Assembly: GCA_022614805.1 (NCBI GenBank)
Contig: JAKEHY010000020.1
Coordinates: 89,449 to 153,448, forward strand
Origin: Candidatus Zixiibacteriota bacterium
Lineage (GTDB): Bacteria; Zixibacteria; MSB-5A5; DSPP01
Direction: 5' to 3'
Length of the DNA: 64,000 bases
In this document: one piece after another, positions 4,829-61,661 of the stretch
Layout of the letters: each line of letters begins with the position of its first letter
Position numbering within the stretch: position 1 is the stretch's first letter
The notes under the pieces: generated by a model
Database searches by the model: none
The model's input: the letters and a program-made list of their open reading frames with translations, nothing else
Told to the model about the DNA's origin: nothing
Made by a program: the position numbers and the translations under genes

Positions 4829-7222
4829 CTAACACGGAAAACTGCCTTGATTGAAAACGGCGGTTATCAAGATAACTATGTCGGCACCAGAGGCCGAACC
4901 GTTGCAATTCAAGTCGCAGGCGCCAAAGCCGGCCGGCGGTTCGGACTGCGAGAAGGTACAGCCGATCAGAAACACAATGTCCGCGGCGCTCAAGTTTCCG
5001 TCTAGGTTCAAGTCCCCCTTCCGGACGGTGGACGGATCTATGACAGCTATGGTTATCGGCTCACTGTCGGTAAGGGAGCCGTCCGAGGCGGTGAACGTGA
5101 CATCATGGTTGCCGACTTGGGATAACGTTGGCGTCCAACTGAAGCGACCCCGTCCGTTCAAACTATCGAAAAAGATGGCCCCACTGGGCAGTCCCGTGAT
5201 GGAAAAGCTTGGGGTAGTTCCATCCGGGTCGCTGGCAGAAACGTTGAAGGCTAACTCTCGACCCGCCAAAACAAATTTGTTTCCAATCGAAGCTAAAACC
5301 GGCGGGTGCGGACCAAAGCTAACCTCCACTACGGTGTCAATCCGCATGGTCACGCCGGAAAGCACCACCGAGTCGAGACCGGAAGAAAGAACATAGCGTA
5401 ACTGATAGGTTCCGGGCACGAGAATTCCCGCATACTGCCCCAAATCGTCGGTCATCCCTTTGGCCAGAGGCGCCTCCGGCGAGCCGAAGGCCCGCACCTT
5501 TACACCGGCCAGAGGATTTCCATCGGAACCGCGCACAGTGCCGGAAAGCTGAACTCCATGGCGCAGGGTCAGATTGATGGTCGTGTCCTTTGTTATCGAA
5601 GCTCCCGTAAAAGAGGCTCCCGTAAAGCGGGAAGCCAAAGGCGGGGTATAGGCCAAATCAAACGTTCTGGGCGGAATAACGGCCTCATAGTATCCGGCCG
5701 AATCGGTATTGTCCGAGGGCGTGAAGACCTCTGTCCCGGAAGGCGGGATAAATGCATCAAAATCAACTTCGAAGAGGGGATTATTAAGGGAGTCTTTGAT
5801 AAATCCCGAAACCGAACGCCCGGAATCGAGAGTGACATTCAAGGTCAAATTAGCATTTAGAGAGAAGTTCGGAAACTCTTTGGCCACGCGGCGAATGGCC
5901 TTGGGCGGTTCAAACTCGACCGTATAGCTGCCAGGAACAGCCACCACGGCATAATTCCCCAAAGCATTGGTAAAGTGGTTGGCCAGAGGTATCTTAGCTC
6001 CCGTAGCGGGATTTTCGAAGCGGATATCTACATTGGCCAATCCGCCCCCTCCGGTTCTTTGAGCCGTGCCGGACAGGGTGACACCGTTGGGCAGATTCGC
6101 ATCTAAAGTTCGGTCGGTGCTGACCGTTACGCGCAAGCTCTCCACGGAGGCCAGCCCTGTGGCGGCCGGGGGTTGAAAGACGACATTAAAGCCGCCGGCC
6201 GGAACCACGGTTTGATAGAAGCCGGCAGCATCGGTGGCATCTCCGGGAGTGGGGATTTTTAGGCCTGTTATAGTGTCTTCCACGTCGATGTCCACGCCGG
6301 CAACCACCGTCATATTGCTGGCGCGGCGAACCGTGCCGGAAAGAAAGAACCCGGGCTGAAGGGTAAAGTTCACGTTATTGATGTCGTTGCTCACCACAAA
6401 GGAAAATATTTTGCCAGCCACCAGCTTGTCGGATACCTGTGGCTCGACGGTTATGTTGTAGGTGCCGGCAGGAACCACCACCTGATAGTCGCCCCCCTCG
6501 TTAGTGTTGTCGTTAGGGGTGGGAACCCGCTCGCCGGTTGAAGAGATGTCAAAGTCTAAATCGGCATCCACCACCGGCTGGCCGTTATTATCCTGAACGC
6601 GGCCGGAAACAAAAAAGCCTGGCTGAAGGATAACATCGCGCGTCTGGGTGGAGTTGAAAACCACCCCTTTGAACTCCGCCGCTACCAGCTTTTCCCCGCT
6701 GACGGGACGGTAGGTTAAAGTATAAAGGCCGCTTTGGAGTACCAAAGAATAGAAGCCGGTGAAATCAGTTTTGTCGCCAGGCGTAAAGACCCGCTGCCCG
6801 GTCAATTCGTCATCCACGTTCAGGTCAATGTTTGCCAAGCCGTTACCGTTTATGTCCCGCACAAAACCAGAAAGGGTGAAACCGAAAGGCACCGTGTCGT
6901 TTAAGACCTGGTTGCCGGAAAACACGTAACCTCGGTTGATGACCGGTGCCAGCCCGCTGCCAGCCGGCGGTTTGAAGGCTATATCGTACGTCCCGGCTGG
7001 CAGGCCAAAAGGTGGGTCTAAATTGTAATTCCCCATCGAATCGGTGGAATCGGCCAAAAGCCCAATCGGGTCACCCGTGTTGCTGTCGAACATATCGATG
7101 TCCACGTTGAATACCCCCACCCCGTTCGGATTGCTGATTTTGCCGGAGAGGAAAAACTGGGCCGACACGCTTCCATAAAGCCCCATGCTTAGGAAAAGGA
7201 TTGCGATTAAGCGACTACGCAT
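4829..7222 (-). CDS. Secreted repeat protein: about six carboxypeptidase-regulatory-like beta-sandwich repeats, an Ig/cadherin-like domain and a C-terminal Cys-rich dockerin
   Basis: Signal peptide and GGAGG SD. Repeats of D.D.D...G...P.D.T...G.Y..VVP.G.Y...F.PP; ASDPDG Ig motif; C-terminal KGDLNLDG..SAADIV...CDLNCNG..SGADIV duplicated Ca loops. Confidence 0.75.
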   Translation of the reverse strand: MRSRLIAILFLSMGLYGSVSAQFFLSGKISNPNGVGVFNVDIDMFDSNTGDPIGLLADSTDSMGNYNLDPPFGLPAGTYDIAFKPPAGSGLAPVINRGYVFSGNQVLNDTVPFGFTLSGFVRDINGNGLANIDLNVDDELTGQRVFTPGDKTDFTGFYSLVLQSGLYTLTYRPVSGEKLVAAEFKGVVFNSTQTRDVILQPGFFVSGRVQDNNGQPVVDADLDFDISSTGERVPTPNDNTNEGGDYQVVVPAGTYNITVEPQVSDKLVAGKIFSFVVSNDINNVNFTLQPGFFLSGTVRRASNMTVVAGVDIDVEDTITGLKIPTPGDATDAAGFYQTVVPAGGFNVVFQPPAATGLASVESLRVTVSTDRTLDANLPNGVTLSGTAQRTGGGGLANVDIRFENPATGAKIPLANHFTNALGNYAVVAVPGSYTVEFEPPKAIRRVAKEFPNFSLNANLTLNVTLDSGRSVSGFIKDSLNNPLFEVDFDAFIPPSGTEVFTPSDNTDSAGYYEAVIPPRTFDLAYTPPLASRFTGASFTGASITKDTTINLTLRHGVQLSGTVRGSDGNPLAGVKVRAFGSPEAPLAKGMTDDLGQYAGILVPGTYQLRYVLSSGLDSVVLSGVTMRIDTVVEVSFGPHPPVLASIGNKFVLAGRELAFNVSASDPDGTTPSFSITGLPSGAIFFDSLNGRGRFSWTPTLSQVGNHDVTFTASDGSLTDSEPITIAVIDPSTVRKGDLNLDGNLSAADIVFLIGCTFSQSEPPAGFGACDLNCNGSASGADIVILITAVFNQGSFPC

Positions 7223-39630: not shown

Positions 39631-39659
39631 ATATTACAAAGCCCCCTTTTCCCTGTCAA
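39631..39659 (-). promoter_or_regulatory. Sigma70-type promoter of the act-cox operon
   Basis: TTGACA-N17-TAATAT on the minus strand. Confidence 0.55.
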
Positions 39660-39688
39660 GCCCAAACAAGGGTTTCGGGTGAAAATCT

Positions 39689-39736
39689 TTGACTTTCACG
39701 CCCCGTGAACTATCTTTTTCCTCGTAGGGTGGGATA
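39689..39736 (+). promoter_or_regulatory. Sigma70-type promoter of the fibre operon, with a palindromic spacer and a downstream AGGGTGGGATA motif
   Basis: TTGACT-N16-TATCTT. The spacer contains TTCACG-CCC-CGTGAA. Confidence 0.5.
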
Positions 39737-39760
39737 GCTCGTAAGCGAAAAAGCCTTTCT

Positions 39761-39820
39761 CCCCTCTCCTCGCAGGAGAGGGTCAGGCTTGTCCCGAGCG
39801 AAGTCGAGGGGGAGAGGTCA
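39761..39820. repeat. CCCTCTCC..GGAGAGGG-type palindromic repeat with an inserted CTTGTCCCGAGCGAAGTCGAGG module
   Basis: Hairpin in the 5' leader of fibre gene 1. A related element is at 50588-50622. Confidence 0.5.
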
Positions 39821-39835
39821 AAAAAGGAGGTTCAA

Positions 39836-41494
39836 ATGAAACGCACCACAATGCTTTCGGCAGCGGGGATTCTGTTGCTCTGCTCGATGGTATGGGCACT
39901 TGTCCCGAGCGTAGTCAAAGGAGCCGTCCCCCAGCTCATCAACTTTCAGGGTATCTTGAGAGACGGCTCCGGCAATCCGGTGGCGAACGGCCCGTATCCC
40001 GTCATCTTCACGATTTACGATGCCTCTGCCGGAGGTAATGTTCATTGGGCGGAAACAACTTCTGTAATTACAACCAGCGGGCTTTTTTCGGTTCTTTTGG
40101 GTTCTGCGAATCCCGTTCCCGATTCCGCTTTTAACAACCCGAACCGCTGGTTGGGGATTAAAGTCGGCGGCGACCCGGAGATGACACCGAGGCAAAAACT
40201 GGTTTCGGTTGGTTATGGCTATCGTGTCAGCTCGGTGGATGGTGCCTTGGGCGGCAATATTCTTACCAAAGTTTCCATTGGTTCGGGGCATAGCAACACA
40301 GGGATATCCGCTTTCGTCGCAGGGGACAGCAACTCGGCTTTCGGGGATTATTCTACAATCGGCGGCGGCAGGTTTAACCAAGTGTATGGAGATTTTGCGA
40401 CGGTCAGCGGCGGCGATTCAAACCAAGCAGTAAACGACGGCAGCACTGTTGGCGGCGGCCGCAAAAATTTTGGGGTGGGTAATTTTACAACAATTGGCGG
40501 TGGCTCCCAAAATTTCGCGAGCGGACAAAACGGCACGGTCGGCGGTGGTCGAGGCAACCTTGCCAACGCTCTTGAGGCTACGGTCGGCGGCGGCGGGAAC
40601 AATGGGGCCAGTGCTATTGGAGCCACGGTCGGTGGCGGCAGAGGGAACACCGCTGGCGGGGATTACGCCACGGTCGGCGGCGGCACAGGTAATGTCACAA
40701 GCGGCGGCTTTTCCACTATTCCCGGTGGTGTCAACAACTACGCCTTTGGCGGCTCCTTTGCCGCCGGTGTGGGGGCAAAGGCCAATCACTCCCACGCCTT
40801 TGTTTGGTCTGATAACAGCGGTGGCGATTTTGCATCCACTGGCAGCAACCAGTTCCTCATCCGCGCTTCGGGAGGGGTGGGTATCGGAACGAACAGCCCC
40901 AACCAAATGCTGGATGTCGCCGACAATATTAGCATTCGAGGAACCCATCTTATTTACAACTCAGCGAATGGCGTCATCGATTGGGGACCGGGCGGCGACC
41001 TTATCTTTCGGCGGCTTGCTACGCAGGGAGACATCAGCGTCTATACGGAGCACATGATAATTAAGGGCGGCGGCAACGTCGGCATCGGAACCTTTGCTCC
41101 CGTCTACAAGCTGGACGTGGCCGGTTCGGCCCACGCCACCAGCTTTCCCACTTCTTCGGATAACCGGCTGAAGAAAAACATCGAACCCTTGACCAAAGTT
41201 TTGGAGAAGATAGAAAAGATTCGCGGCGTTTCCTTCGACTGGAACGAAACCTACGAGAAGATGGGGCGTTCTTCCGGCCACCGGGAAATTGGGGTCATCG
41301 CCCAGGATGTTGAGAAGGTTTTCCCCGAACTCATTTCAAAATGGGGAGACGAGCATTATCGCGGAGTGGACTACGGCCGGATGACGGCGGTTTTGATTGA
41401 AGCGGTCAAAGAACTAAAAGCTGAAAATGAGGAATTGAGAAACAGAATTTTGAAATTGGAGAAAGGCAAACCCCAAGCGCAGGTAGAACATTAA
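39836..41494 (+). CDS. Secreted tail-fibre-like trimeric protein 1 (conserved N-module, Gly-rich beta-roll repeats, peptidase S74 chaperone, coiled coil)
   Basis: Signal peptide, VPQLINFQGILRD module, about 14-aa ATVGGG..N repeats, SDNRLKKNI...GVIAQDVEKVFPEL. Confidence 0.8.
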   Translation: MKRTTMLSAAGILLLCSMVWALVPSVVKGAVPQLINFQGILRDGSGNPVANGPYPVIFTIYDASAGGNVHWAETTSVITTSGLFSVLLGSANPVPDSAFNNPNRWLGIKVGGDPEMTPRQKLVSVGYGYRVSSVDGALGGNILTKVSIGSGHSNTGISAFVAGDSNSAFGDYSTIGGGRFNQVYGDFATVSGGDSNQAVNDGSTVGGGRKNFGVGNFTTIGGGSQNFASGQNGTVGGGRGNLANALEATVGGGGNNGASAIGATVGGGRGNTAGGDYATVGGGTGNVTSGGFSTIPGGVNNYAFGGSFAAGVGAKANHSHAFVWSDNSGGDFASTGSNQFLIRASGGVGIGTNSPNQMLDVADNISIRGTHLIYNSANGVIDWGPGGDLIFRRLATQGDISVYTEHMIIKGGGNVGIGTFAPVYKLDVAGSAHATSFPTSSDNRLKKNIEPLTKVLEKIEKIRGVSFDWNETYEKMGRSSGHREIGVIAQDVEKVFPELISKWGDEHYRGVDYGRMTAVLIEAVKELKAENEELRNRILKLEKGKPQAQVEH

Positions 41495-41512
41495 CCCAAA
41501 GAGGAGGAGCGT

Positions 41513-43435
41513 ATGAAACGCATCCCGGTTTTAACAAAGCTGACAGCGCTTTTGGCGCTGTGGACGGTAGCAGTCTGGGCAGCAGTCCCCCAACTCATCA
41601 ACTTTCAGGGCGTTTTGCGGGACGGCTCCGGCAATCCGGTGGCTAACGGCTCCTATTCCGTCATCTTCACCATTTACGATGACCCAGCCGCTGGAAACGT
41701 GCTCTGGGCGGAAACGACTTCCGTTTCAACCACCAGCGGCCTTTTCACGGTTCTTTTGGGTTCGACAAATCCGGTTCCCGATTCCGCTTTCCGGGACACC
41801 ACTCGCTATCTTGGAATTAAAGTCGGCGCCGACCCGGAGATGACGCCGCGGCAACGGTTGGTTTCGGTCGGTTATGGCTATCGAGTTAGTTCAGTGGATG
41901 GCGCCCTGGGTGGAAATATCCTTACGAAGGTCTCCATCGGCCCGGGGCACACCAATACCGGCACCAACGCCTTTGTGGCTGGTGAAAATAACAAAGCTCG
42001 CGGGAATTATTCGGTAGTCAGCGGCGGCGGGGGGGCAAATGTTGCCGACTCAAACTCTGCAAATGGAGCCTTGTCCACCGTCTCTGGAGGCTCATATAAC
42101 GCAGCAGGCGGTGTTGGGGCAACGGTTGACGGAGGGGTCAATAACCGCGCAAGCGGCGATTATTCAACCGTCGGCGGCGGGGGGGGTAACTCGGCAAATG
42201 CTGACAATGCAACAGTCAGCGGCGGCTACAACAACAATTCAAGTGGCGGCCAAGCCTTTATAGGTGGCGGAGCGAGCAATACTGCAAGCGGGGGCGCTGC
42301 TGTGGTTGGTGGCGGACAGTTAAATACGGCGAACGGCTTAAATACCGCCACAGTTGGAGGTGGGTACGACAATTCCGCCAGCGGCTCTTATTCCACAGTC
42401 GGCGGCGGCCAGGTCAATGTCGCCAGCGTCAGTTGGGCCACGGTCGGTGGCGGCAACGCCAACACGTCGAGCGGCTCTTATGCCACGGTCGGCGGCGGCT
42501 TCAGCGACACGGCCAGCGGCTTTATTTCCACAGTCCCCGGAGGTTTGGCAAACAAAGCATCCGGCGGTTATTCCTTCGCCGCCGGTCGCCGGGCCAAAGC
42601 GCTTCATGATGGGTCCTTTGTATGGGGTGATCGAGGCGACTTTACTTTTGGAACCGATTTTGCTTCTACGAATATCAATCAGTTCCTAATCCGCGCCTCC
42701 AACGGGGTGGGGATCAACACCAATAGTCCCAACAAAGCGCTCACCGTCGCCGGCTCAATGGAAATCGGGACGGGCGCGGGGGATTACCAGCACCTTCGCC
42801 TCGGAGGCGGCAACTCCTCCGGCTTTCTTTTCGGCAGCTATCCAAGTCTTGGCGATGGAATCCATATGTCGTACAATTATTATTCCAACGGACCCAACTT
42901 TGTAATAAATCCGGGCGGGGGGACCAGCCGTATTTCGGTGGGATATGGAGAAATTAGGATGACTGTGGGCGATATAGGTTCGCCACCCACCCAGCTTGGT
43001 ATTTTTATTGGTTATCCGGGCAATGTCGGCATCGGGACTTTGGCCCCGGCGGCCAAGTTGCACGTTAACGGTACGGCGGGGAACAACACCGGGGTTTGGT
43101 CCAACCTTTCGGACCGACGACTGAAGCGGGATATTGAGCCGATTCAAAATGCCTTGGAAACAGTGGAACAACTTAACCCGGTGAGCTTCCGGTGGAAGGA
43201 TGCAGAAAAAGATGCCCAATTTGGGCGGGTTCGGGGATTGATTGCCCAAGACGTGGAAAAAGTCATTCCGGAATGGATAAAAACCGACCCGGATGGTTAC
43301 AAACGTCTTGAACCGATTGGGATAGATGCTTTACTCATTGAAGCCCTCAAAGAACAACAGAAGCAAATAGAGGTGTTAAAAGAGGAGATTGCGAAACTGA
43401 AAGACCAATCGTCTCAAGCACAGGCGAAAAATTAA
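41513..43435 (+). CDS. Secreted tail-fibre-like protein 2 (same architecture, more repeats, different tip)
   Basis: N-module nearly identical to gene 1 at DNA level. SDRRLKRDI...GLIAQDVEKVIPEW S74 domain. Confidence 0.8.
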   Translation: MKRIPVLTKLTALLALWTVAVWAAVPQLINFQGVLRDGSGNPVANGSYSVIFTIYDDPAAGNVLWAETTSVSTTSGLFTVLLGSTNPVPDSAFRDTTRYLGIKVGADPEMTPRQRLVSVGYGYRVSSVDGALGGNILTKVSIGPGHTNTGTNAFVAGENNKARGNYSVVSGGGGANVADSNSANGALSTVSGGSYNAAGGVGATVDGGVNNRASGDYSTVGGGGGNSANADNATVSGGYNNNSSGGQAFIGGGASNTASGGAAVVGGGQLNTANGLNTATVGGGYDNSASGSYSTVGGGQVNVASVSWATVGGGNANTSSGSYATVGGGFSDTASGFISTVPGGLANKASGGYSFAAGRRAKALHDGSFVWGDRGDFTFGTDFASTNINQFLIRASNGVGINTNSPNKALTVAGSMEIGTGAGDYQHLRLGGGNSSGFLFGSYPSLGDGIHMSYNYYSNGPNFVINPGGGTSRISVGYGEIRMTVGDIGSPPTQLGIFIGYPGNVGIGTLAPAAKLHVNGTAGNNTGVWSNLSDRRLKRDIEPIQNALETVEQLNPVSFRWKDAEKDAQFGRVRGLIAQDVEKVIPEWIKTDPDGYKRLEPIGIDALLIEALKEQQKQIEVLKEEIAKLKDQSSQAQAKN

Positions 43436-43453
43436 TTTAAAAGGAGGCGTCAA

Positions 43454-45004
43454 ATGAAACGTTTTACCATACTATCTGGACTCGGAATGGCGCTTTTCCT
43501 CGTGTCCGTTGCTTATGCCGCCATCCCCCAGCTTATCAACTTTCAGGGCATTTTGAAAGACGGCTCCGGCAACCCGGTGGCCAACGGGAGCTATTCCGTC
43601 ATTTTCACGATTTACGATGCCCCCTCCGCCGGGAACGTGCTCTGGGCGGAGACGACTTCCGTTTCCACTACCAGCGGCCTTTTTTCGGTTCTTTTGGGTT
43701 CGGCAAATCCGGTTCCCGATTCCGCTTTCCAAGACACTGCTCGCTATCTCGGCGTTAAAGTCGGGGCCGACCCGGAGATGACGCCGAGGCAAAAACTGGT
43801 TTCGGTTGGGTATGCCTATGAATCGGCACAGTGGACTTCCGCCGCTCAAAATTTATTCCGCTTGAGTGGAAACGTCGGCATCGGCACGAACATTCCGCTG
43901 GGACTCCTGCATCTCAAAGGCAGCAATTACAAATTGCTTTTGGAAAGTTCCGGCAACGCAGACGTGGTCATCGGCCGTGCGGATGCCACCCGGTACGGCA
44001 ACTACATTCTGGCGGACGGCGACCCGAGCGTCGGGGCCAACAACCGCTGGGCAATTGGGCTGCGGAACGGCGACTCCAAACTGCACCTGTATGACGAAGT
44101 GAACAGTTCGAACGTGATGGTCTTGCAGCCGGGCGGCAATGTCGGCATCGGAACGGCCTCGCCCGCGGCGCAGCTCCACGTACATGACCCGATCAATTCC
44201 ATCCTGGGCAGTCGGCTGATGTTGACGCAGGCTGCGGGCGGCTCAACTATTTTTGACGGGTTGGCAGTAATTGGTACGCCCCCAAAAGGGTATTTGTGGA
44301 ACTATGAGAACGGACCTTTAATCTTCGGAACCAATGACGCGGAGCGGCTGCGCATCGATTCGGCCGGCAACGTCGGCGTCGGTATCGATGCGCCGGCCGC
44401 CCGGCTGCAGGTGGGCCTCGCGGGCATCGAAGGGACACCACCATTCATCGCCGGGACCCAGATTGTCGCCCAAGCGACAAACGGGGGCAACTGGGCGCAT
44501 ATGGCTATCATCTCCAGCAGTTCGGGCCAGTCGCGCTTGAACTTCGGTGATGCCAGCAACGACGACCAGGGGTCGGTGGCCTACAACAACTTCAACGATG
44601 CGATGTTTTTCATCACCGCGGCTGCCGAACGGATGCGCATTACGAACACCGGCAATGTCGGTATCGGAACAAGCGCCCCGAACAGTCGCTTGCAGGTCAA
44701 TGGCGCCCTTGCCACGGCGGTTACCGCGATTACCGTGAACTCTACGTTGAACGAGTCCCACAGCATTGTTTTGGCAAGCACGCCCGGTGTAAGTGATGTC
44801 GTCATTACCCTTCCGACAGCGGTTGGAATCGCGGGCCGGCAGTACACCATAAAGAAAGCGGACGCTGCGGCGCATACTGTAGTGGTGGATGCCAATGGCG
44901 CCGAAACCATCGACGGGGCTTTTTTGTACAATCTGACCGCACAAAACAAATATGTAACATTGGTCAGCAACGGCGCAAATTGGTTTGTCATAGCCAATAA
45001 TTGA
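43454..45004 (+). CDS. Secreted tail-fibre-like protein 3 (N-module, GNVGIGT repeats, phage-type C-terminal beta domain, no S74)
   Basis: Shared N-module. C-terminus ITLPTA...GRQYTIKK.D...AETIDG...LVSNGANWFVI. Confidence 0.75.
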   Translation: MKRFTILSGLGMALFLVSVAYAAIPQLINFQGILKDGSGNPVANGSYSVIFTIYDAPSAGNVLWAETTSVSTTSGLFSVLLGSANPVPDSAFQDTARYLGVKVGADPEMTPRQKLVSVGYAYESAQWTSAAQNLFRLSGNVGIGTNIPLGLLHLKGSNYKLLLESSGNADVVIGRADATRYGNYILADGDPSVGANNRWAIGLRNGDSKLHLYDEVNSSNVMVLQPGGNVGIGTASPAAQLHVHDPINSILGSRLMLTQAAGGSTIFDGLAVIGTPPKGYLWNYENGPLIFGTNDAERLRIDSAGNVGVGIDAPAARLQVGLAGIEGTPPFIAGTQIVAQATNGGNWAHMAIISSSSGQSRLNFGDASNDDQGSVAYNNFNDAMFFITAAAERMRITNTGNVGIGTSAPNSRLQVNGALATAVTAITVNSTLNESHSIVLASTPGVSDVVITLPTAVGIAGRQYTIKKADAAAHTVVVDANGAETIDGAFLYNLTAQNKYVTLVSNGANWFVIANN

Positions 45005-53937: not shown

Positions 53938-56217
53938 CTATTTCACCAACTGCATCTTTTTTGTTTCCACATAACTTCCCGCCCGAATCTGGTAGAGATA
54001 AATGCCGGAAGAGACCGCTGCTCCGTTTTCGTCCCGCCCGTCCCAGAACACCTCATACAGTCCTGACGGCTTTTCATCGACGAAAGTTCTGACCGCTTGC
54101 CCCAAGATGTTGTAAATCCTCAACTCCACCCTCGTAGCTTGCGGGAGGGCAAAACGGATAACCGTTGCGGCGTTGAACGGATTGGGATAATTCTGGGCCA
54201 GTTCGAATTTCGAGGGGCGGGAGTCATCCACAACCGTGATTTTGGCGCAAGGGCCGTTCCCCGGCCCGCCGCAGCCTCCGCCCCCTCCACCGGTCGGACA
54301 GGTGGAAATGGGGGTTGCCGGCAGGGAGAGATAGGGGTCAATATCTATGTCGCCTGTAAACCAAGCGGCTGGAGGTGGCACCGAGTCCCAATAGTTCCCT
54401 TCCGCTTTCATAAATGAAAGGGTATCCAGCCAGACCGCTTTGGCGGTGGGAAGCTCGGCGGTTTTCATCAAGACATTGTTTTTCCCGCAGTCGGTGGGAG
54501 CCACTCCCAAGTTGACGTTTTTGCTTTTGGTATAGATGGCCAGGTTCCTAAAGTCGCTGAATTTGGAATTGCGCACCTTTACGGTGCATGTGTCTCGAAC
54601 GTAAAGAATGGTATCAGCGTGGCTGAATTGGGTAAAGGCGAAGTTCCCCCGTGCCGGATGAGAGAAAAACAAACCGCCCCAGTCCATTTTGGTCGGGGAC
54701 GATGAGGAAGAGAGAAATTTTATTGAATCAGTTTGGGTTCCAAGGGCAGTCAAAGTCCCTTTGACTATAAATTCTGTTTTGGTGGTATCGCGCCCGCTTC
54801 TCATTACGTCCTGATTTGCAGCGGCCAAAACCTGGACGCCGGGATTAAGCGTTAAAGTAACCGGGGTGGCACAGGAATCGAGGGTAAAATCCCCTATCAG
54901 CGTGTCATTGCCTGCAGCCCAGGTGGACGTGCGCCCCAGCTTGCCCAAAAAAGGAATGCGCGGCAAGGTATCGTATGGTCGGAAGTTGACCTTATCAACC
55001 GGATAAAACAACGTGTTGCTGTCTGGGTTAGAAGTACCATACCAGTTACCAATGGCATTTACAGTGCTGGAAGGAGTTCGGATAATCGCCTTTGCGGTGG
55101 GTTTACAAGGTAGCAGAAAAACGTTTTTACCGCTGTCGTTCGATGTGCCAAAATCGTCATGGGCACTACGAGATAAAATTGCGGCCGAATCGAATCCGCT
55201 AAAAACATTTCTTCGTACTAGAAATTTATGAGAAGCAAGAACATAAGTAATTAAACCGAACGGTGAGCGCAGGGTCGTATTTCCGGTAATTAGTTTGTTT
55301 TTTATTATACGCCAACCGCTGTCGGGGCCAGGAAATGGCCAAGTCACGATATGCCCAACTGCAAAATACCCCTCAATGGTATTTTCTTCAACTATGATGG
55401 AGTTGGGGTCAAAACCCGATTGTGCGCTAACTTGAACAGCCACTGAACAACTGTTTGCGAAAAAGTAGTTCCGGGTTATCTTCCCGACGTAATCATCAAA
55501 GAAAACGGCTAAGCTTTTCTGATTCAAGAACTTGTTACTGTCTATCTCTATGCCGAAATCGTGGGTAACGTCAATGGCGGTATCTCTACCCAAGAAAATG
55601 TTCCCCCGAATTACAAAACTGTCTCGTGTTACCTGCACCGTCGAAATGCGCGGTGGAGTGCCACCAGCACGGTGATGGAAAGAATTTCCGATAGCGTGCG
55701 TTCTCCAGTTTTCAAATCTGCTGTTTGCAACTGAATCAATGCTGGTATACACGAAATGGTCGTCTGCTGACCATGTAAAAATCGTTATGTCCCCATCCAG
55801 CAACTCAGCATAATTCACTCTGATTAGGGCGGACGAAGCTACGCGCCGGATTCCAAACCAATCACCAGCTATCCCCGAATCTGGGCGATTTGAGCGAAAG
55901 ACAATTTTACCAGTTGCACTGCTGTTTCCCGCTATTCGGAGAGTTCCCGCCACCAGAATTTCGATGCGTTGAGAATCACTGCCTAAGTTTATCGAATCAA
56001 AAAGTGCTCTCATATAAAGGGTACAGGGTGGGGTGATTGTCAAAGTTACCCCTGGATTGATGAAGAGGTCTTTAACAAGGGTACAGGTTCCCGTTATCGT
56101 GGTATCCGTTTTTATGGTGTCCGGCAGGGAACAGGTGGAACAAGTTACAGCCGGTGAAAAAAGCATGACAAAAATGACTAATCCGGCCCGAAACAGATTC
56201 CCTTTGCTAAGGGCCAT
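53938..56217 (-). CDS. Secreted right-handed beta-helix protein with a C-terminal FlgD/T9SS-type sorting domain
   Basis: ATG 56217 lies 2 nt after the upstream stop. Two VTLT..PG/P...GTL...G...I.F.S...DW.G modules. C-terminus LAQNYPNPFN...WDGRD...SSGIYLY...KKMQLVK. Confidence 0.8.
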   Translation of the reverse strand: MALSKGNLFRAGLVIFVMLFSPAVTCSTCSLPDTIKTDTTITGTCTLVKDLFINPGVTLTITPPCTLYMRALFDSINLGSDSQRIEILVAGTLRIAGNSSATGKIVFRSNRPDSGIAGDWFGIRRVASSALIRVNYAELLDGDITIFTWSADDHFVYTSIDSVANSRFENWRTHAIGNSFHHRAGGTPPRISTVQVTRDSFVIRGNIFLGRDTAIDVTHDFGIEIDSNKFLNQKSLAVFFDDYVGKITRNYFFANSCSVAVQVSAQSGFDPNSIIVEENTIEGYFAVGHIVTWPFPGPDSGWRIIKNKLITGNTTLRSPFGLITYVLASHKFLVRRNVFSGFDSAAILSRSAHDDFGTSNDSGKNVFLLPCKPTAKAIIRTPSSTVNAIGNWYGTSNPDSNTLFYPVDKVNFRPYDTLPRIPFLGKLGRTSTWAAGNDTLIGDFTLDSCATPVTLTLNPGVQVLAAANQDVMRSGRDTTKTEFIVKGTLTALGTQTDSIKFLSSSSSPTKMDWGGLFFSHPARGNFAFTQFSHADTILYVRDTCTVKVRNSKFSDFRNLAIYTKSKNVNLGVAPTDCGKNNVLMKTAELPTAKAVWLDTLSFMKAEGNYWDSVPPPAAWFTGDIDIDPYLSLPATPISTCPTGGGGGGCGGPGNGPCAKITVVDDSRPSKFELAQNYPNPFNAATVIRFALPQATRVELRIYNILGQAVRTFVDEKPSGLYEVFWDGRDENGAAVSSGIYLYQIRAGSYVETKKMQLVK

Positions 56218-56219
56218 CG

Positions 56220-57020
56220 TCAACACGGAAAAGGTCTGAATAAGAAGACTGCATATATTTCCAGCACGATGTCTGCCGCAGAGCGAGTCCCATCGCAATT
56301 CAGGTCGCAAGCGGCTACCCCGGTGAGGGGAGGGGAGCAGGTGTCGCAAAAGGTGCAGTTTATAAGCAAAACTATATCGGCGGCAGTTAAGGAAAAGTCC
56401 AAATTCAAATCCCCTTTAGGAGCCTGCACTACGGTAATGACGCTTTTTAGGAAGTTGACCCTTACATCCTGTGGTACAGTGTTGGTAAAATACACATACC
56501 AATTTGCTGATGAATCAAGGTCAAATGTTCCCGTCGCCGCTCGCACAGTGTCGAACTTTAGCTCCCAAACTGCTTTCCGGGTAGCGTTGGGGGGCTCTAT
56601 GGTGGACGGGTCGACCCCGTCAGCGCCAGCAGCGACAGAAAAAAAATCTGGACTGTTGTTGTCGTAGTTGGGAAAGCCGACCGCTGTAAAGTAACGAAAT
56701 GTATTGGTTAGGGGGTTCACGACGCCAAAAAAGTTTCGGGGACAAGGACAAGCAACGATGGCATAGGCCCCGCCGGAAGTGGAGGTCACTTCCACCGGCA
56801 AAACCATATAGATGAGCGAATCCTTATTGGTTATGAAAACTTTCACGTACAAATAAGAGGCGGTGTCGGTCACTGCCCCCGGGTGGGCGCCGGGAGCGAC
56901 CGTTTTGGACTCCAAAATGACGGAATCCCGCGGGTCGGGGGGCTGGGAAAAGGCAGAAGACGCTCCCAAAAGAAACAGCACCACCCTTGCGGCAATTGCG
57001 GCTGGTCTTTTTATCATCAT
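56220..57020 (-). CDS. Secreted cohesin-like plus dockerin protein, copy A
   Basis: Signal peptide, beta-rich ~170-aa domain, C-terminal KGDLNLD..TAADIV...CDLNCDG..SAADIV dockerin. Confidence 0.7.
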   Translation of the reverse strand: MMIKRPAAIAARVVLFLLGASSAFSQPPDPRDSVILESKTVAPGAHPGAVTDTASYLYVKVFITNKDSLIYMVLPVEVTSTSGGAYAIVACPCPRNFFGVVNPLTNTFRYFTAVGFPNYDNNSPDFFSVAAGADGVDPSTIEPPNATRKAVWELKFDTVRAATGTFDLDSSANWYVYFTNTVPQDVRVNFLKSVITVVQAPKGDLNLDFSLTAADIVLLINCTFCDTCSPPLTGVAACDLNCDGTRSAADIVLEIYAVFLFRPFPC

Positions 57021-57076
57021 AAGCTTAACCTTACGTCAAATATCGAAGTCAAATCTCAAGAAAGCAAGCTCGATTT

Positions 57077-57889
57077 TCACGCATTGCATGGAAAAGGACT
57101 GAATAAGAAGACCGCATATATTTCCAGCACAATGTCCGCGGCGGAACGCCTTCCGTCGCAGTTCAGGTCGCAGGCGGCCGCACCTGGGAGCGGGGGTGGA
57201 CAGGTGTCGCAAAAGGTGCAGTTTATAAGCAAAACTATATCAGTGGCAGTTAAGGCAAAATCTAAATTTAAATCCCCTTTGGGAGCAGGCGCTACCGTGA
57301 CGGTACTTTTGAGGAAGTTGACGTTTACATCCAGTGATACGTTGTTTGTGAATCGTACACGCAGACCACCCAGTCTTGTTGAATCAAACTTAAAGGTTCC
57401 GGTTTCAGATCGCACAGTGTCGAACTTTAGCTCCCAAACTGCTTTCCGGGTAGCGTTGGGGGGCTCAATGGTGGACAGGTCGACCCCGTCAAAGCCTGCA
57501 GCTACTGAAAAAATATCCGGGCTATTGTTATCGTAGTTGGAGAAGCTGACCGCTTGGAAGTAACGCAAAGTGTTGGTCAGGGGGTTCACGACACCCAAAA
57601 AGCTCCGCGGACAAGGACAAGCAACGATGGCATAGGCCCCGCCGGAAGTGGAGGTCACTTCCAGAGGCAAAGTCAAATAGGTGAGCGAATCTTTATTGGT
57701 TATGAAAACTTTCACGTGCAAATAAGAAGCAGTGTCGTTCAGTGCACCCGGGTGGGCGCCGGGAGCAACCGTTTTGGATTCCAAAATGACGGAATCGCGG
57801 GGGTCAGGGGGCTGGGAAAAAGCAGGAGATACCCCCAAAAGAAACAGCACTACCCCGGCGGCAATTGCAGCTGGTCTTTTAAGCGGCAT
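57077..57889 (-). CDS. Secreted cohesin-like plus dockerin protein, copy B
   Basis: Tandem paralog of copies A and C with a shared intergenic sequence. Confidence 0.7.
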   Translation of the reverse strand: MPLKRPAAIAAGVVLFLLGVSPAFSQPPDPRDSVILESKTVAPGAHPGALNDTASYLHVKVFITNKDSLTYLTLPLEVTSTSGGAYAIVACPCPRSFLGVVNPLTNTLRYFQAVSFSNYDNNSPDIFSVAAGFDGVDLSTIEPPNATRKAVWELKFDTVRSETGTFKFDSTRLGGLRVRFTNNVSLDVNVNFLKSTVTVAPAPKGDLNLDFALTATDIVLLINCTFCDTCPPPLPGAAACDLNCDGRRSAADIVLEIYAVFLFSPFPCNA

Positions 57890-57945
57890 ATGGTTACCCT
57901 TACATCAAATATCGAAGGCAAATCTCAAAAAAGCAAGCTCGATTT

Positions 57946-58758
57946 TCAGGCATTGCAGGGAAAAGGTCGGAATAAGAAGACCGCATATATTTCCAGCACA
58001 ATGTCCGCGGCAGAACGCACCCCATCACAATTCAGGTCGCATGCGGCCATCCCGGGGAGCGGGGGAGGACAGGTGTCACAAAAGGTGCAGTTTAAAAGCA
58101 AAACTATGTCGGCACCAGTTAAAGCGAAGTCGAGATTCAAGTCCCCCTTGGGAGCGGGCGCTACGGTGATGACACTTTTGAGAAAGTTGACCTTAACATC
58201 CTGCCCCGCGATGGTCGTAAATACTAATTGCGCGCCTCCAAGCCGCGATGAATCAAGCTCAAATGTTCCGGTTGCCGTTCGGACGGTGTCGAACTTTAGC
58301 TCCCAAACTGCTTTCCGGGTAGCGTTGGGTGGCTCAATGGTGGTCGGGTCGATCCCGTCATTGCCTGCCGCGACAGCAAATTTATCCGGACTGATATTGT
58401 CGTAGTTTGTGAAGCTGACCACTTCGAAGTAACGCAAAGTGCTGGTCAGGGGGTTCACGACCCCGAAAAAGCTCCGCGGACAAGGACAAGCAACGATGGC
58501 ATAGGCCCCACCGGAAGTGGAGGTCACCTCCACCGGCAAAACCATAAAGCTGAGCGAATCTTTGTTGGTTATGAATACTTTCACGTACAAATAGGAGGCG
58601 GTGTCGTTCAGTGCACCCGGGTGGGCGCCGGGAGCGACCGTTTTGGACTCCAGAATGATGGAATCCCGGGGGTCAGGGGGCTGGGAAAAAGCAGATGACG
58701 CTCCTAAAAGAAACAGCACCACCCCTGCGGCAATTGCGGCGGGTTTATTAACTGACAT
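57946..58758 (-). CDS. Secreted cohesin-like plus dockerin protein, copy C
   Basis: Tandem paralog with an 869-bp repeat period relative to copy B. Confidence 0.7.
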   Translation of the reverse strand: MSVNKPAAIAAGVVLFLLGASSAFSQPPDPRDSIILESKTVAPGAHPGALNDTASYLYVKVFITNKDSLSFMVLPVEVTSTSGGAYAIVACPCPRSFFGVVNPLTSTLRYFEVVSFTNYDNISPDKFAVAAGNDGIDPTTIEPPNATRKAVWELKFDTVRTATGTFELDSSRLGGAQLVFTTIAGQDVKVNFLKSVITVAPAPKGDLNLDFALTGADIVLLLNCTFCDTCPPPLPGMAACDLNCDGVRSAADIVLEIYAVFLFRPFPCNA

Positions 58759-58921: not shown

Positions 58922-60295
58922 ATGGGCCCCATCCCGACGACAATGAGAGCAGTATCCGCTTCGGCCATACTTTTCCTGACGGCAACCACCCTCTTTGGGC
59001 AGAACCCTCTCTCCAAGGACAGCCGGGTGGGGGTGCCGCCGTTCGAAGTCGATTTTGCCGCCTTTGCCGATACCGCCAAAGGTACAAGCCGGCTGGAGGT
59101 GTACTATAAACTGCGCAACGCCGGCTTCACCTTCGTAAAAAAGGGAAACGAATACCAGGCCGCCTACGATGTGGAGGTCAGCCTGGAAGCGGAAAACGGA
59201 CGGGAGATTGCGTCCCGGCGCAGCTCCGAGGAATTCACCGTGCCGAGCTACGACCAGACCCAAAGCTTGGAGAGCTACCGGTTGAACGCCGCCCATTTTT
59301 CCGTCAAACCGGGGAAATACAAAATCAAAATCCACCTGACCGATAACAACTCCAACGAAATCTCCTCCGCTTCCCGCAAGGCCGTTGTGCCCGATTTCAC
59401 GCGCGGTGTTCTGGCGGCCAGCGACCTTTTGCTCATCGGCGCCTTTGCCGACTCGGCCGACCTGCCGCTTTTTAAAAAGGAGGGGCGTACCGCGATTCCC
59501 TCCGTTTCCCGCGCCTTCGGCGACCCCGATTCCTCGCTCGCTTTCTACTTCGAAGTTTATTCCCACCGCCCGGAGTTGAAAAACTGTCGGGTGGAGTACG
59601 AAATCTCCCAGCGCCAGCACGGCGCCTGGTCGAAGGATACCGCCACCCTCGCGTTGGCCGGGGAAAAAACGGTTGTTTTTGAACGCCTCCCCATCCGCAA
59701 ATTTCCCCCGGGCGACTACCGCCTGAAAGCGACTTTGCGCGAAGGGAAAAAGGAACTGGCCGGCCGCGAAACCGAGTTCAAGATGAACTGGAACTGGGAG
59801 GCCGCGCTCGTTTACAACTTCCGGGACGTGGTCGACCTCCTGCGCTATTTTGCGCGCGAAGTGGATGTGAAACCGCTGGAAAAAGCGCCGGCGGAAAAGC
59901 GGCTGGAGGAATGGGAAAAATTCTGGAAGGAGCGCGACCCGACCCCCCCGACCAGGGAAAACGAGGCCAAGGATGAATTTGGCCGCCGGGTTCGTTTCGT
60001 CGACGCCTACTTCGCCCATATGGGGCTGCCCGGCTGGAAGTCCGATATGGGGAAAATTTACATCCGCTACGGCGAACCGGACCAGGTGGATGAAGACCAG
60101 AGCGGGATGCGCAACACCAACCCCTTTGCGGAGGAGACCGACCGCTACACCACCAATGTCACCCGCATCCGCCAAACCGGCCATGCTACCCAGACCTGGT
60201 ACTACTACAGCTTCCGGCGGGCCTTTTCCTTCGAGGATGTGACCGGCAACGGCAGTTGGGTCCTGCGCCCCCCCTTTGACGGGCGGAGATTTTGA
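58922..60295 (+). CDS. GWxTD-domain protein 1
   Basis: Signal peptide (possible start at 58943), FWKERDPTP, GWKSDMGKIYIRYGEPD. Confidence 0.85.
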   Translation: MGPIPTTMRAVSASAILFLTATTLFGQNPLSKDSRVGVPPFEVDFAAFADTAKGTSRLEVYYKLRNAGFTFVKKGNEYQAAYDVEVSLEAENGREIASRRSSEEFTVPSYDQTQSLESYRLNAAHFSVKPGKYKIKIHLTDNNSNEISSASRKAVVPDFTRGVLAASDLLLIGAFADSADLPLFKKEGRTAIPSVSRAFGDPDSSLAFYFEVYSHRPELKNCRVEYEISQRQHGAWSKDTATLALAGEKTVVFERLPIRKFPPGDYRLKATLREGKKELAGRETEFKMNWNWEAALVYNFRDVVDLLRYFAREVDVKPLEKAPAEKRLEEWEKFWKERDPTPPTRENEAKDEFGRRVRFVDAYFAHMGLPGWKSDMGKIYIRYGEPDQVDEDQSGMRNTNPFAEETDRYTTNVTRIRQTGHATQTWYYYSFRRAFSFEDVTGNGSWVLRPPFDGRRF

Positions 60296-60299
60296 CCGT

Positions 60300-61661
60300 A
60301 TGCGAAAACTCGTGCTGTTTTTTTGCCTGTTTTCAACAACGGTTTTTTCCCAGACCCCCGTTCCGGAGAAACCCCTCGATGTCGCCGCCGACTACGCCTG
60401 CTTTCGCGAAAATTCCGCGACCCGGTTGGAAATTTACTACTCCCTCTCGTCGGACGAACTGGCCCTAAGCCCGAGCGACAGTTCCACGGGCGGTCCCGGG
60501 AAAAACCTGGCTTATGTGCTGGCCTTCGCCGATTTGTTCGCCGCCGACGGCCGCCCGGTCGATTCCCTTTCCAAGACCACCGCCTTCCGGGTCTCCCGCA
60601 CGGACACCACCAACGAACTCTCCGATATTCTGGACTTTCTGGCCCCCCCGGGGGACTACCAGGTCCGCTTGACCCTCCGGGATTTGCAAAGCGGAAGGGT
60701 GGGGCACGCTTCCTTGAAGCTGACCGTGCCGGATTTGGGCCCGCCCGGCCTGCAGTTCAGTTCCCTGCAGCTGGCCCGCTTGATTGCGGACAAAAAACAA
60801 AAGCCGGAGGCCAGCCTGTACAAAAAAGGGGGCCGGCTCATCGTGCCGAATCCCCCCGCCACTTACAGTTTGGACGACCCCCGTTTGTATTTCTATGCCG
60901 AAATTTACGGGCTGTCACCGGCCCGGCCGGAACTGAAAAACTTTGACTTCGAATACGCCATCCTGAACACCCAGGGAGACACCGTAAAAATTTCCGGCTT
61001 TCACAAACAGCCGAACGAGAACCCCGCCGCCGTCACCGGCTCGGTGGACCTTTCGATTTTGCCGCCGGGGGAATATTCCCTTTTGCTTTCGGCGCGTGAC
61101 CCGGCCACCGGGGAGGGGGCTTCGCAAAGCAAGCCATTCTGGCTTTTCGAGCCTTCCACCCGCCCGCCCGTGGCCGAAGAGGAACTGGACTATTTCCCCA
61201 AAGTCACCTTTTACCTCTTGACCAACCAAGAAAAAGCGATTTACCGGGCCTCCAACCGGACCGGGCGGCTGAATTTCATCAACGAATGGTGGGGCAAACA
61301 CGACCCCAGCCCGCCAACGCCGGAAAACGAGTACAAACTGGAAGCCTATCGCCGCTTCTCGGTGGCGGTCGCCCGCTTTTCCCGCACCCCCTCCTCCCGG
61401 GACGGCTGGCAGACCGACCGGGGGCGTGTTTTGATGCTCTACGGGGAACCGAACAACGTCGAACAGTCTCCCGCCTCCCCCGACAACCTCCCCTGGCAGA
61501 AATGGGAGTACACGCGCATAGCCGCCGGACGGCAGGGCCTTTTCGTCTTTGCCGATTTAAGGGGGCTGGGGAACTACGAGCTGGTGCACTCCACGGTTCC
61601 GGGGGAAAAACGGAATCCGGAATGGGAAGATATGCTGAATCAGAATGTCCTCCGGCGTTAG
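60300..61661 (+). CDS. GWxTD-domain protein 2
   Basis: Start at ATG 60300. WWGKHDPSP, GWQTDRGRVLMLYGEP. Confidence 0.85.
   Translation: MRKLVLFFCLFSTTVFSQTPVPEKPLDVAADYACFRENSATRLEIYYSLSSDELALSPSDSSTGGPGKNLAYVLAFADLFAADGRPVDSLSKTTAFRVSRTDTTNELSDILDFLAPPGDYQVRLTLRDLQSGRVGHASLKLTVPDLGPPGLQFSSLQLARLIADKKQKPEASLYKKGGRLIVPNPPATYSLDDPRLYFYAEIYGLSPARPELKNFDFEYAILNTQGDTVKISGFHKQPNENPAAVTGSVDLSILPPGEYSLLLSARDPATGEGASQSKPFWLFEPSTRPPVAEEELDYFPKVTFYLLTNQEKAIYRASNRTGRLNFINEWWGKHDPSPPTPENEYKLEAYRRFSVAVARFSRTPSSRDGWQTDRGRVLMLYGEPNNVEQSPASPDNLPWQKWEYTRIAAGRQGLFVFADLRGLGNYELVHSTVPGEKRNPEWEDMLNQNVLRR

Follow-up and report, generated by a model that had tools for sequence, protein, structure and literature searches.

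Three tandem genes encode secreted proteins with a predicted cohesin fold and a dockerin

What three closely similar genes standing in a row encode, and why there should be three of them, is the question raised by a locus in a 64,000-nt stretch of DNA (the window) from a Candidatus Zixiibacteriota bacterium (GenBank assembly GCA_022614805.1, contig JAKEHY010000020.1, positions 89,449 to 153,448 of the forward strand). The source genome measures 2.56 Mb and is 93% complete; the window corresponds to its contig 18. Copies A (58758..57946), B (57889..57077) and C (57020..56220) lie on the minus strand as tandem, head-to-tail paralogs, with open reading frames (ORFs) of 270, 270 and 266 aa and pairwise protein identities of 82–83%. 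A preliminary description, drawn from the sequence, had taken them for adaptors composed of a cohesin-like domain and a dockerin, with long shared stretches and discrete variable patches; all the stretches and patches that it quoted were found in the alignment. Judged largely from predicted structures, the three genes hint at a possible kit for assembling proteins on a Gram-negative surface, similar to a cellulosome but non-cellulolytic.

All three proteins begin with a Sec-type signal peptide (...AFS/QPPDP), leaving a mature protein of about 245 aa. In copy A, the signal peptide (residues 1–25; 58684-58758) is followed by a domain with a predicted cohesin fold (residues 26–200; 58159-58683), a short APAPKG linker and a Cys-rich dockerin (residues 204–268; 57955-58149). 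The evidence for this architecture comes from the alignment, an AlphaFold2 (AF2) model, Foldseek and a comparison of the family profile with dockerins in the PDB. Copies B and C share the architecture of A, their cohesin-fold domains lying at 57290-57814 and 56430-56945 and their dockerins, detected by Pfam Dockerin_1, at 57086-57280 and 56223-56417. No catalytic domain is present and, at the level of fold, the arrangement is that of an adaptor scaffoldin. Both halves of a cellulosome-type coupling are therefore found in each copy, as had been proposed, the cohesin half being cohesin-like in fold.

The amino-terminal domain has the predicted fold, not the sequence, of a cohesin

The N-terminal domain (∼175 aa) gave no match in Pfam or NCBIfam. 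Two independent AF2 models were made, one of full-length A built on a 46-sequence multiple sequence alignment (MSA; mean predicted local distance difference test score, pLDDT, 89.4; predicted template modelling score, pTM, 0.79), and one of the domain alone with the 16 paralogs of the genome as the MSA (pLDDT 88.7, pTM 0.86). The Foldseek search of the PDB, a check proposed in the preliminary description, placed only cohesins at the top: the best 42 matches of the full-length model and the best 34 of the domain-only model were all cohesins, with no carbohydrate-binding modules (CBMs) or lectins, and in the latter case with template modelling (TM) scores above 0.5 in both normalisations. Over both models, TM scores were 0.52–0.59 when normalised to the query domain. 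The leading match of full-length A was CaCohA2 (6kge, E=1.3e-8), others being OlpC (4dh2), an Archaeoglobus fulgidus cohesin (2xdh), Ruminococcus flavefaciens CohG and Acetivibrio cellulolyticus ScaC; the domain-only model matched 1ohz_A with TM scores of 0.59/0.71.

Strands were assigned from the DSSP string of the AF2 model, and their sheet membership was checked by mean-field direct coupling analysis (DCA) of 182 family domains. Nine strands were delimited (β1, 33–41; β2, 57–65; β3, 69–82; β4, 85–90; β5, 110–117; β6, 125–132; β7, 145–159; β8, 164–170 plus 179–182; β9, 191–199). The top couplings joined β3 to β6 (71–132, 75–131, 75–128), β3 to β8 (77–171, 81–165, 75–178, 73–179), β5 to β6 (110–132, 113–130), β2 to β7 (60–153, 63–149, 62–150) and, in parallel orientation, β1 to β9 (36–195, 40–198). 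These pairings are the canonical cohesin sheet arrangement, 8-3-6-5 / 9-1-2-7-4; since AF2 itself uses covariation, their agreement with the models is not fully independent. The predicted models thus show a nine-strand jelly-roll with the cohesin strand order and a parallel β1–β9 pair. These features are shared with the type I cohesins of Clostridium and Acetivibrio (6kge, 1ohz, 1aoh, 4dh2, 3ul4), with TM scores normalised to the target of 0.62–0.72 (the range over both models), but identity in the structural alignments is 8–16% and the domain is about 30 residues longer, with insertions in the β1–β2 loop and between β4 and β5 (the latter with a short helix).

On the evidence of the models and the DCA pairings, the N-terminal domain belongs to the cohesin fold, and the earlier guess that it is a cohesin holds at that level; it does not belong to the Pfam cohesin family by sequence. 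Pfam, NCBIfam, profile and sequence searches of the PDB, and hhalign showed no homology to cohesins at the sequence level. Nor did a transitive link emerge via remote relatives: when 1.84 billion representative proteins were searched with the family profile, only 150 matched, and PF00963 was found in none of the distant ones. In remote relatives from other Zixibacteria families, the domain is again paired with a dockerin or with the C-terminal domain (CTD) that serves as sorting signal for a type IX secretion system (T9SS).

Two further features of the domain were noted. A Cys-Pro-Cys insertion in the β4–β5 loop (ACPCPR, residues 90–95) occurs only in the window copies, their relatives reading A-RPR. 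In addition, each copy has D-S-I/V, D-T-A and D-S-L (residues 32–34, 52–54 and 67–69; 56220-58758), which conform to the sequon for O-glycosylation in Bacteroidota, D(S/T)(A/I/L/V/M/T); throughout the family there is little or no variation at D32-S33 and D67-S68.

The carboxy-terminal region resembles a type I dockerin

With hmmscan, Pfam Dockerin_1 scored 21.4 bits in B and 21.8 bits in C (cut-off 22.9) and gave no match in A; in a six-frame search of the genome, C (24.7 bits) and B (23.9 bits) both exceeded the cut-off. The same family was matched in 41 of the 46 family members, and the 46-sequence family profile matched only solved dockerins in the PDB (best, 2y3n_B, E=1.4e-5, over residues ∼191–247 of A). 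Both calcium loops (D-x-N-x-D-x6-D) are intact, their residues D206/N208/D210/D217 and D241/N243/D245/D252 being invariant in A, B and C, and the AF2 model places one helix with each loop (215–227 and 250–262), which gives the two tandem EF-hand-like loops, each with a helix, of a type I dockerin. The C-terminus is thus probably a Cys-rich, type-I-like dockerin with two calcium-binding loops and disulfide staples. The dockerin linker of the three copies carries extra cysteines (FCDTC) which, with the Cys-Pro-Cys insertion of the N-terminal domain, could form additional disulfides or bind metal.

The three dockerins are ∼90% identical. Their few differences, which are conservative, include three sites in repeat 1 that are classically involved in recognition by type I dockerins, namely positions 10 and 11 (GA/AT/AA) and 17 (L/I/I).

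The three copies differ mainly on one sheet

Among A, B and C, 46 columns of the N-terminal domain vary, and they are clustered along it (none of 5000 shuffles reached the observed window variance). They fall preferentially on the 8-3-6-5 sheet, where they take up 15 of the 41 strand residues against 4 of the 48 on 9-1-2-7-4 (Fisher p=0.0016), and the four patches named in the preliminary description, whose variable sites had been expected to share one face, all lie on or beside β3, β5, β6 and β8. Copy C also has a 2-aa deletion within the β8–β9 patch. In solved type I complexes (e.g. 1OHZ), 8-3-6-5 is the sheet that binds the dockerin. The concentration of variation there can be read as an indirect pointer to dockerin binding on this face in the window proteins too, and together with the near-identical dockerins it makes a pattern of the same plug with a different socket face.

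Selection was analysed on the three copies by the NG86 method, pairwise and by region. Pairwise dS was 0.49–0.51 and dN 0.10, with the copies equidistant; they are old paralogs, and the overall omega of 0.21 shows that all three are maintained by purifying selection. The β8–β9 patch (residues 161–190) had a dN of 0.35–0.41 and a dS of 0.8–1.0 (dN/dS about 0.4–0.5), the dockerin a dN of 0.05–0.07, and residues 141–160 a dN of 0 with a dS of 0.07–0.33. These values do not demonstrate positive selection; beside the low overall omega, only an 8-codon patch in β3 exceeded 1, on 5–6 substitutions, and this was not robust. Of the 'hypervariable' patches described earlier, it therefore stands that they are clustered and less constrained, but not that they are driven to change. 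As a separate observation, dS in two invariant blocks (codons 77–110 and 141–160) falls to 0.07–0.33 against ∼0.5 overall, which suggests local gene conversion or constraint at the nucleotide level.

Covariation between the two domains of the full-length protein (effective number of sequences, 79) yielded one strong pair, T158–F226, at rank 4, and weaker signals at loops 49, 91, 108 and 163. Together with the pTM of the full-length model, this tentatively suggests that the dockerin packs against the sandwich at its pole, close to where β9 ends, leaving the 8-3-6-5 face free.

Cohesin-like modules, dockerins and T9SS in the genome

The genome holds 16 cohesin-like modules, the three window copies included. 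Two of them, on contigs 26 and 11, are joined without a dockerin to a T9SS sorting domain, and some of the others have Ig/He_PIG or FN3-like spacers ahead of the dockerin. A second array, on contig 25 (11308-17708), comprises seven consecutive genes with eight cohesin-like modules, one of its proteins having two modules and a dockerin. It is followed by genes for a GSDH propeller with a dockerin of the adaptor type, an M6 peptidase with a dockerin, and a 1001-aa T9SS cargo protein. The T9SS machinery is itself encoded in the genome (PorU, 702.8 bits; SprA, 592 bits), along with 34 proteins whose CTD scores above the cut-off.

About 55 ORFs have a C-terminal dockerin, nearly all ending in ...PFPC or a close variant, with P-x-P-C at or near the C-terminus. 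In 40 of these cargo proteins that were scanned, propellers of the FG-GAP, SBBP, BNR and LVIVD types were found, as were CarboxypepD_reg/Ig repeats, peptidases (S8, M4, M6 and C11), PhoD and GSDH. No glycoside hydrolase was present within the 25 commonest Pfam families of this set, in line with the non-cellulolytic role that had been suggested.

At least three dockerin subtypes can be told apart by their linkers: 'PPxG..ACD', a Cys-poor 'VPKC', and 'GxCxLC', in which one more pair of cysteines is present. In a dockerin tree, 9 of the 11 dockerins of cohesin-like proteins fell into one 11-member core clade with the 'PPxG..ACD' linker, together with two cargo proteins, namely a 797-aa protein of the window and the GSDH propeller beside the contig-25 array. 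An SBBP propeller (contig 23) with the same linker motif branched just outside this clade, while the 22-member 'GxCxLC' cargo clade contained no dockerin from a cohesin-like protein. Labels changed 5 times over the tree against 10.2 in shuffles (0/500), although the alignment is short and branch support modest. From their sequences, the adaptor dockerins seem to form a subtype apart from most cargo dockerins, suggestive of a different cohesin/dockerin specificity.

The 797-aa window protein (4829..7222, minus strand), identified by Pfam, tblastn and the tree, consists of CarboxypepD_reg/Ig repeats and a C-terminal dockerin (4859-5020; 23.2 bits in Pfam). It had been singled out before as carrying the same Cys-rich dockerin, and both alignment (58% identity to that of A by tblastn) and tree (same 'PPxG..ACD' subtype) bear this out; it is a candidate co-docking protein or partner of the three copies.

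A canonical cohesin, if a weak one, was also found in the genome. The protein concerned (297 aa; contig 15, 45061-45960) has a signal peptide, a PF00963 match of 19.8 bits and the best T9SS CTD of the genome. Its homologs (51–61% identity) combine PF00963 with PF18962, so that it looks like a conserved, and apparently undescribed, T9SS-anchored cohesin. Close to it (39644-44884) lies a gene for a 1747-aa HYR-repeat protein; its C-terminal part matches cohesins weakly and also contains a T9SS CTD and a double loop like that of a dockerin (GDLNLNG...DINGDS).

Adaptor function and alternative explanations

We hold it somewhat probable that copies A, B and C are single-cohesin adaptors, whose shared dockerin would dock on a T9SS-anchored receptor and whose diversified sheets would capture dockerin-tagged proteins. 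The near-identical dockerins would plug all three proteins into one receptor, for which the canonical cohesin–CTD protein of contig 15 and the cohesin-like–CTD proteins of contigs 26 and 11 are candidates. The 8-3-6-5 sheet of each module would form a different socket, and three copies would widen the set of dockerin-tagged secreted proteins held at the surface, a set that would include propellers, Ig-repeat proteins, peptidases and a phosphatase. Here we infer dockerin binding by the fold, the identity of the dockerins bound and the site of the complex. A wider version of this explanation is possible but doubtful: the modules may form a second, sequence-cryptic cohesin family with a diversifying sheet, a combinatorial adaptor layer that would link T9SS-anchored cohesins to more than 50 dockerin proteins as a programmable non-cellulolytic 'cellulosome' on the outer membrane of this genus, and that would also be at least a partial receptor of the cysteine-stapled dockerins.

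Several observations weigh against an adaptor function. The first concerns ancestry: PF00963 matched neither A, B or C nor, even with the limit set at E<=10, any of the 46 members of the family, and a comparison with three CipA cohesins by hhalign gave a probability of 0.5%, so that the cohesin membership once assumed does not extend to sequence. The second concerns the variable columns, which coincide with those of the family at large (entropy 2.27 vs 1.16 bits, p=5e-11) and are simply its least constrained ones; meanwhile it is the conserved face, with β1, β7 and β9 almost invariant family-wide, that bears the conserved charges (E37, K39, K149, E153 and K155), and the surface that matters for function could lie there. 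Third, the canonical cohesin–T9SS anchor of contig 15 may be the main dockerin receptor. When 201 genomes from the phylum were sampled, 175 had canonical cohesins above the cut-off (1–9 each, often in ORFs of ∼285 aa) and 197 had dockerins (usually at least 30 matches per genome), while the cryptic cohesin-like family is strong only in the genus of the window (16, 12 and 18 copies). The genomes with 12–18 copies measure 2.5–2.7 Mb, and the family is weakly present in ten genomes of two other families. Finally, the search for an outer-membrane route for dockerin proteins without a CTD found only secretins below the GspD cut-off.

Because the cryptic family is strong in one genus only while dockerins are nearly universal, it was ruled out as a receptor serving dockerins throughout the phylum, and is instead an additional layer specific to its lineage.

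Alternatively, the proteins may be ordinary dockerin-tagged cargo, with a fold repurposed for some other ligand, such as a glycan, the surface of a mineral or substrate, or the beta-helix protein encoded next to copy C, and with the canonical cohesin–T9SS proteins as the only true receptors. The phylum-wide conservation of such a receptor, the narrow distribution of the cohesin-like family against that of dockerins, and the missing sequence signal of cohesin ancestry all speak for this explanation, and the tight, conserved operon link to a beta-helix protein that has neither cohesin nor dockerin would suit a dedicated partner. We nevertheless consider it rather unlikely. The best structural matches are cohesins to the exclusion of CBMs and lectins; the domain (X) occurs in the architectures typical of scaffoldins (X–CTD, X–dockerin and X–X–dockerin), of which X–CTD is also that of the genome's canonical cohesin; and the sheet that varies is the one with which cohesins bind dockerins.

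If the copies do bind dockerins, these might be their own. A dockerin that bound a cohesin-like module of its own copy, or of one of the other two, would produce head-to-tail chains or a surface lattice, not recruitment of cargo. Both modules are joined in one small polypeptide by a rigid six-residue linker, and the full-length pTM of 0.79 suggests a fixed orientation; further, the dockerins of cohesin-like proteins form a separate subtype that few cargo proteins share, the few differences among those of A, B and C include the recognition positions of repeat 1, and multi-copy tandem arrays recall families of structural subunits. Self-assembly is improbable even so, as dockerins ∼90% identical face putative binding sheets that differ strongly, which leaves little matched co-variation, and the weak inter-domain covariation, with its one pair at rank 4, points to the pole of the sandwich and not to the binding face. 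That the triplet is an assembly artefact, or a set of decaying duplicates without separate functions, is very improbable: the source is metagenome-assembled, repeats are prone to mis-assembly and the low-dS blocks (residues 141–160) could reflect collapse or gene conversion, but the copies are equidistant, with dS ∼0.5 and omega 0.21, each has an open frame and both dockerin loops intact, and a protein collection has records of all three proteins on two contigs.

Relationship to known cohesin–dockerin systems

In many non-cellulolytic bacteria and archaea, dockerins far outnumber recognisable cohesins, and their receptor is a long-standing loose end. A fold-level cohesin that sequence profiles miss, fused to dockerins and occurring in anchoring (T9SS CTD), adaptor and double-module forms, bears on this problem. 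Among the nearest analogues of the window proteins are the single-cohesin adaptor scaffoldins of cellulosomes, such as R. flavefaciens ScaC (reviewed in PMC4959524). Like these, the window copies are secreted proteins with one cohesin-type module and one dockerin of a subtype unlike that of most cargo, and their presumed role would be the same, namely to change or broaden the specificity with which proteins tagged with a dockerin are linked to an anchored scaffoldin. They differ in showing no similarity to PF00963, in belonging to a diderm host with T9SS in place of the SLH or sortase anchoring of Gram-positive bacteria, in their non-cellulolytic cargo, in forming tandem paralog arrays and in having a Cys-rich dockerin that ends in ...PFPC.

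Non-cellulosomal cohesin and dockerin proteins have been surveyed (Peer et al. 2009, as cited in PMC8542988). The A. fulgidus type resembles the present one in that both modules are found where cellulases are absent, and 2xdh was among the best structural matches (rank 7–8, TM score to target 0.63). Those modules are recognisable by sequence, however, whereas here the fold alone is recognisable, in a family of 12–18 copies per genome. In the cloacimonadotal 'Ca. Stygibacter', a cellulosome-like system with a T9SS CTD-bearing scaffoldin has been inferred (PMC8542988). Both are diderms of the FCB group in which dockerin-tagged peptidases and other proteins are inferred to sit on a cohesin protein anchored by a T9SS CTD; the 'Ca. 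Stygibacter' system has a single giant scaffoldin, which combines canonical cohesins in tandem with CBMs, in contrast to the small one- or two-module cryptic-cohesin proteins and separate small canonical cohesin–CTD protein found here. The present system differs from these analogues in lacking any cohesin sequence similarity, in its small genes amplified in tandem, in a dockerin rich in Cys, in its association with T9SS and in cargo that is non-cellulolytic.

None of the papers covered by a literature search links Zixibacteria with cohesins, dockerins or cellulosomes, and the occurrence of both modules in most of the 201 genomes suggests an undescribed, general feature of this phylum. Should dockerin binding be true, it would mean a cohesin–dockerin assembly on a diderm surface by way of T9SS, the cargo of which would be proteases, phosphatases and propellers resembling adhesins, and the one plug with three sockets would offer a natural specificity series for structural work and a source of orthogonal parts for protein assembly.

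The beta-helix protein, the origin of the triplet and flanking genes

The ATG of the next gene lies 2 nt past the stop codon of copy C. This gene (53938..56217, minus strand) encodes a 759-aa protein with Beta_helix/NosD matches, whose start is read as MALSKG; the ORF list extends the same frame to an upstream TTG at 56349. In the protein, a signal peptide is followed by a right-handed beta-helix region with an internal duplication, a linker rich in Gly and Cys and a C-terminal T9SS type A sorting domain (residues 677–755; 53953-54189, minus strand), which scores 38.4 bits with TIGR04183 (cut-off 23) and 27.2 with Pfam Por_Secre_tail (cut-off 27). With this sorting domain and the PorU and SprA of the genome, it qualifies as T9SS type A cargo, and the earlier view that the operon ends in a T9SS-type surface protein is upheld. 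Pfam and NCBIfam showed neither a cohesin nor a dockerin in it, and a PDB sequence search gave no match. The companion claim that the operon has no carbohydrate-active enzyme is correct at the Pfam level only, as the beta-helix could still be a carbohydrate-active module of the CASH type.

At the DNA level the repeat unit of the triplet is ∼869 nt, and the A–B and B–C spacers, of 56 nt each, are near-identical. A Zixibacteria metagenome-assembled genome (L004) has a single cohesin-like/dockerin gene followed directly by a beta-helix gene whose product is 59% identical, and the same single-copy pair occurs in a genome of the same genus (G004, contig 55, L065), beside an aquaporin-type gene. The window thus shows a conserved pair of adaptor and beta-helix genes in which the adaptor gene has been triplicated at the level of the species. 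In L065 (846-3591) the beta-helix ortholog is split into ORFs of 180 and 774 aa, by a frameshift or an assembly error.

A scan of 53.7–59.0 kb for promoters and terminators gave counts no better than those of shuffled sequence. Upstream of copy A, and divergent from the array, a tandem pair of genes for GWxTD-domain proteins (457 and 461 aa; identified by Pfam) occupies 58922..61661 on the plus strand. The closest relative (L003, 72% identity) has the GWxTD pair at the corresponding position, and its contig ends after the first cohesin-like copy.

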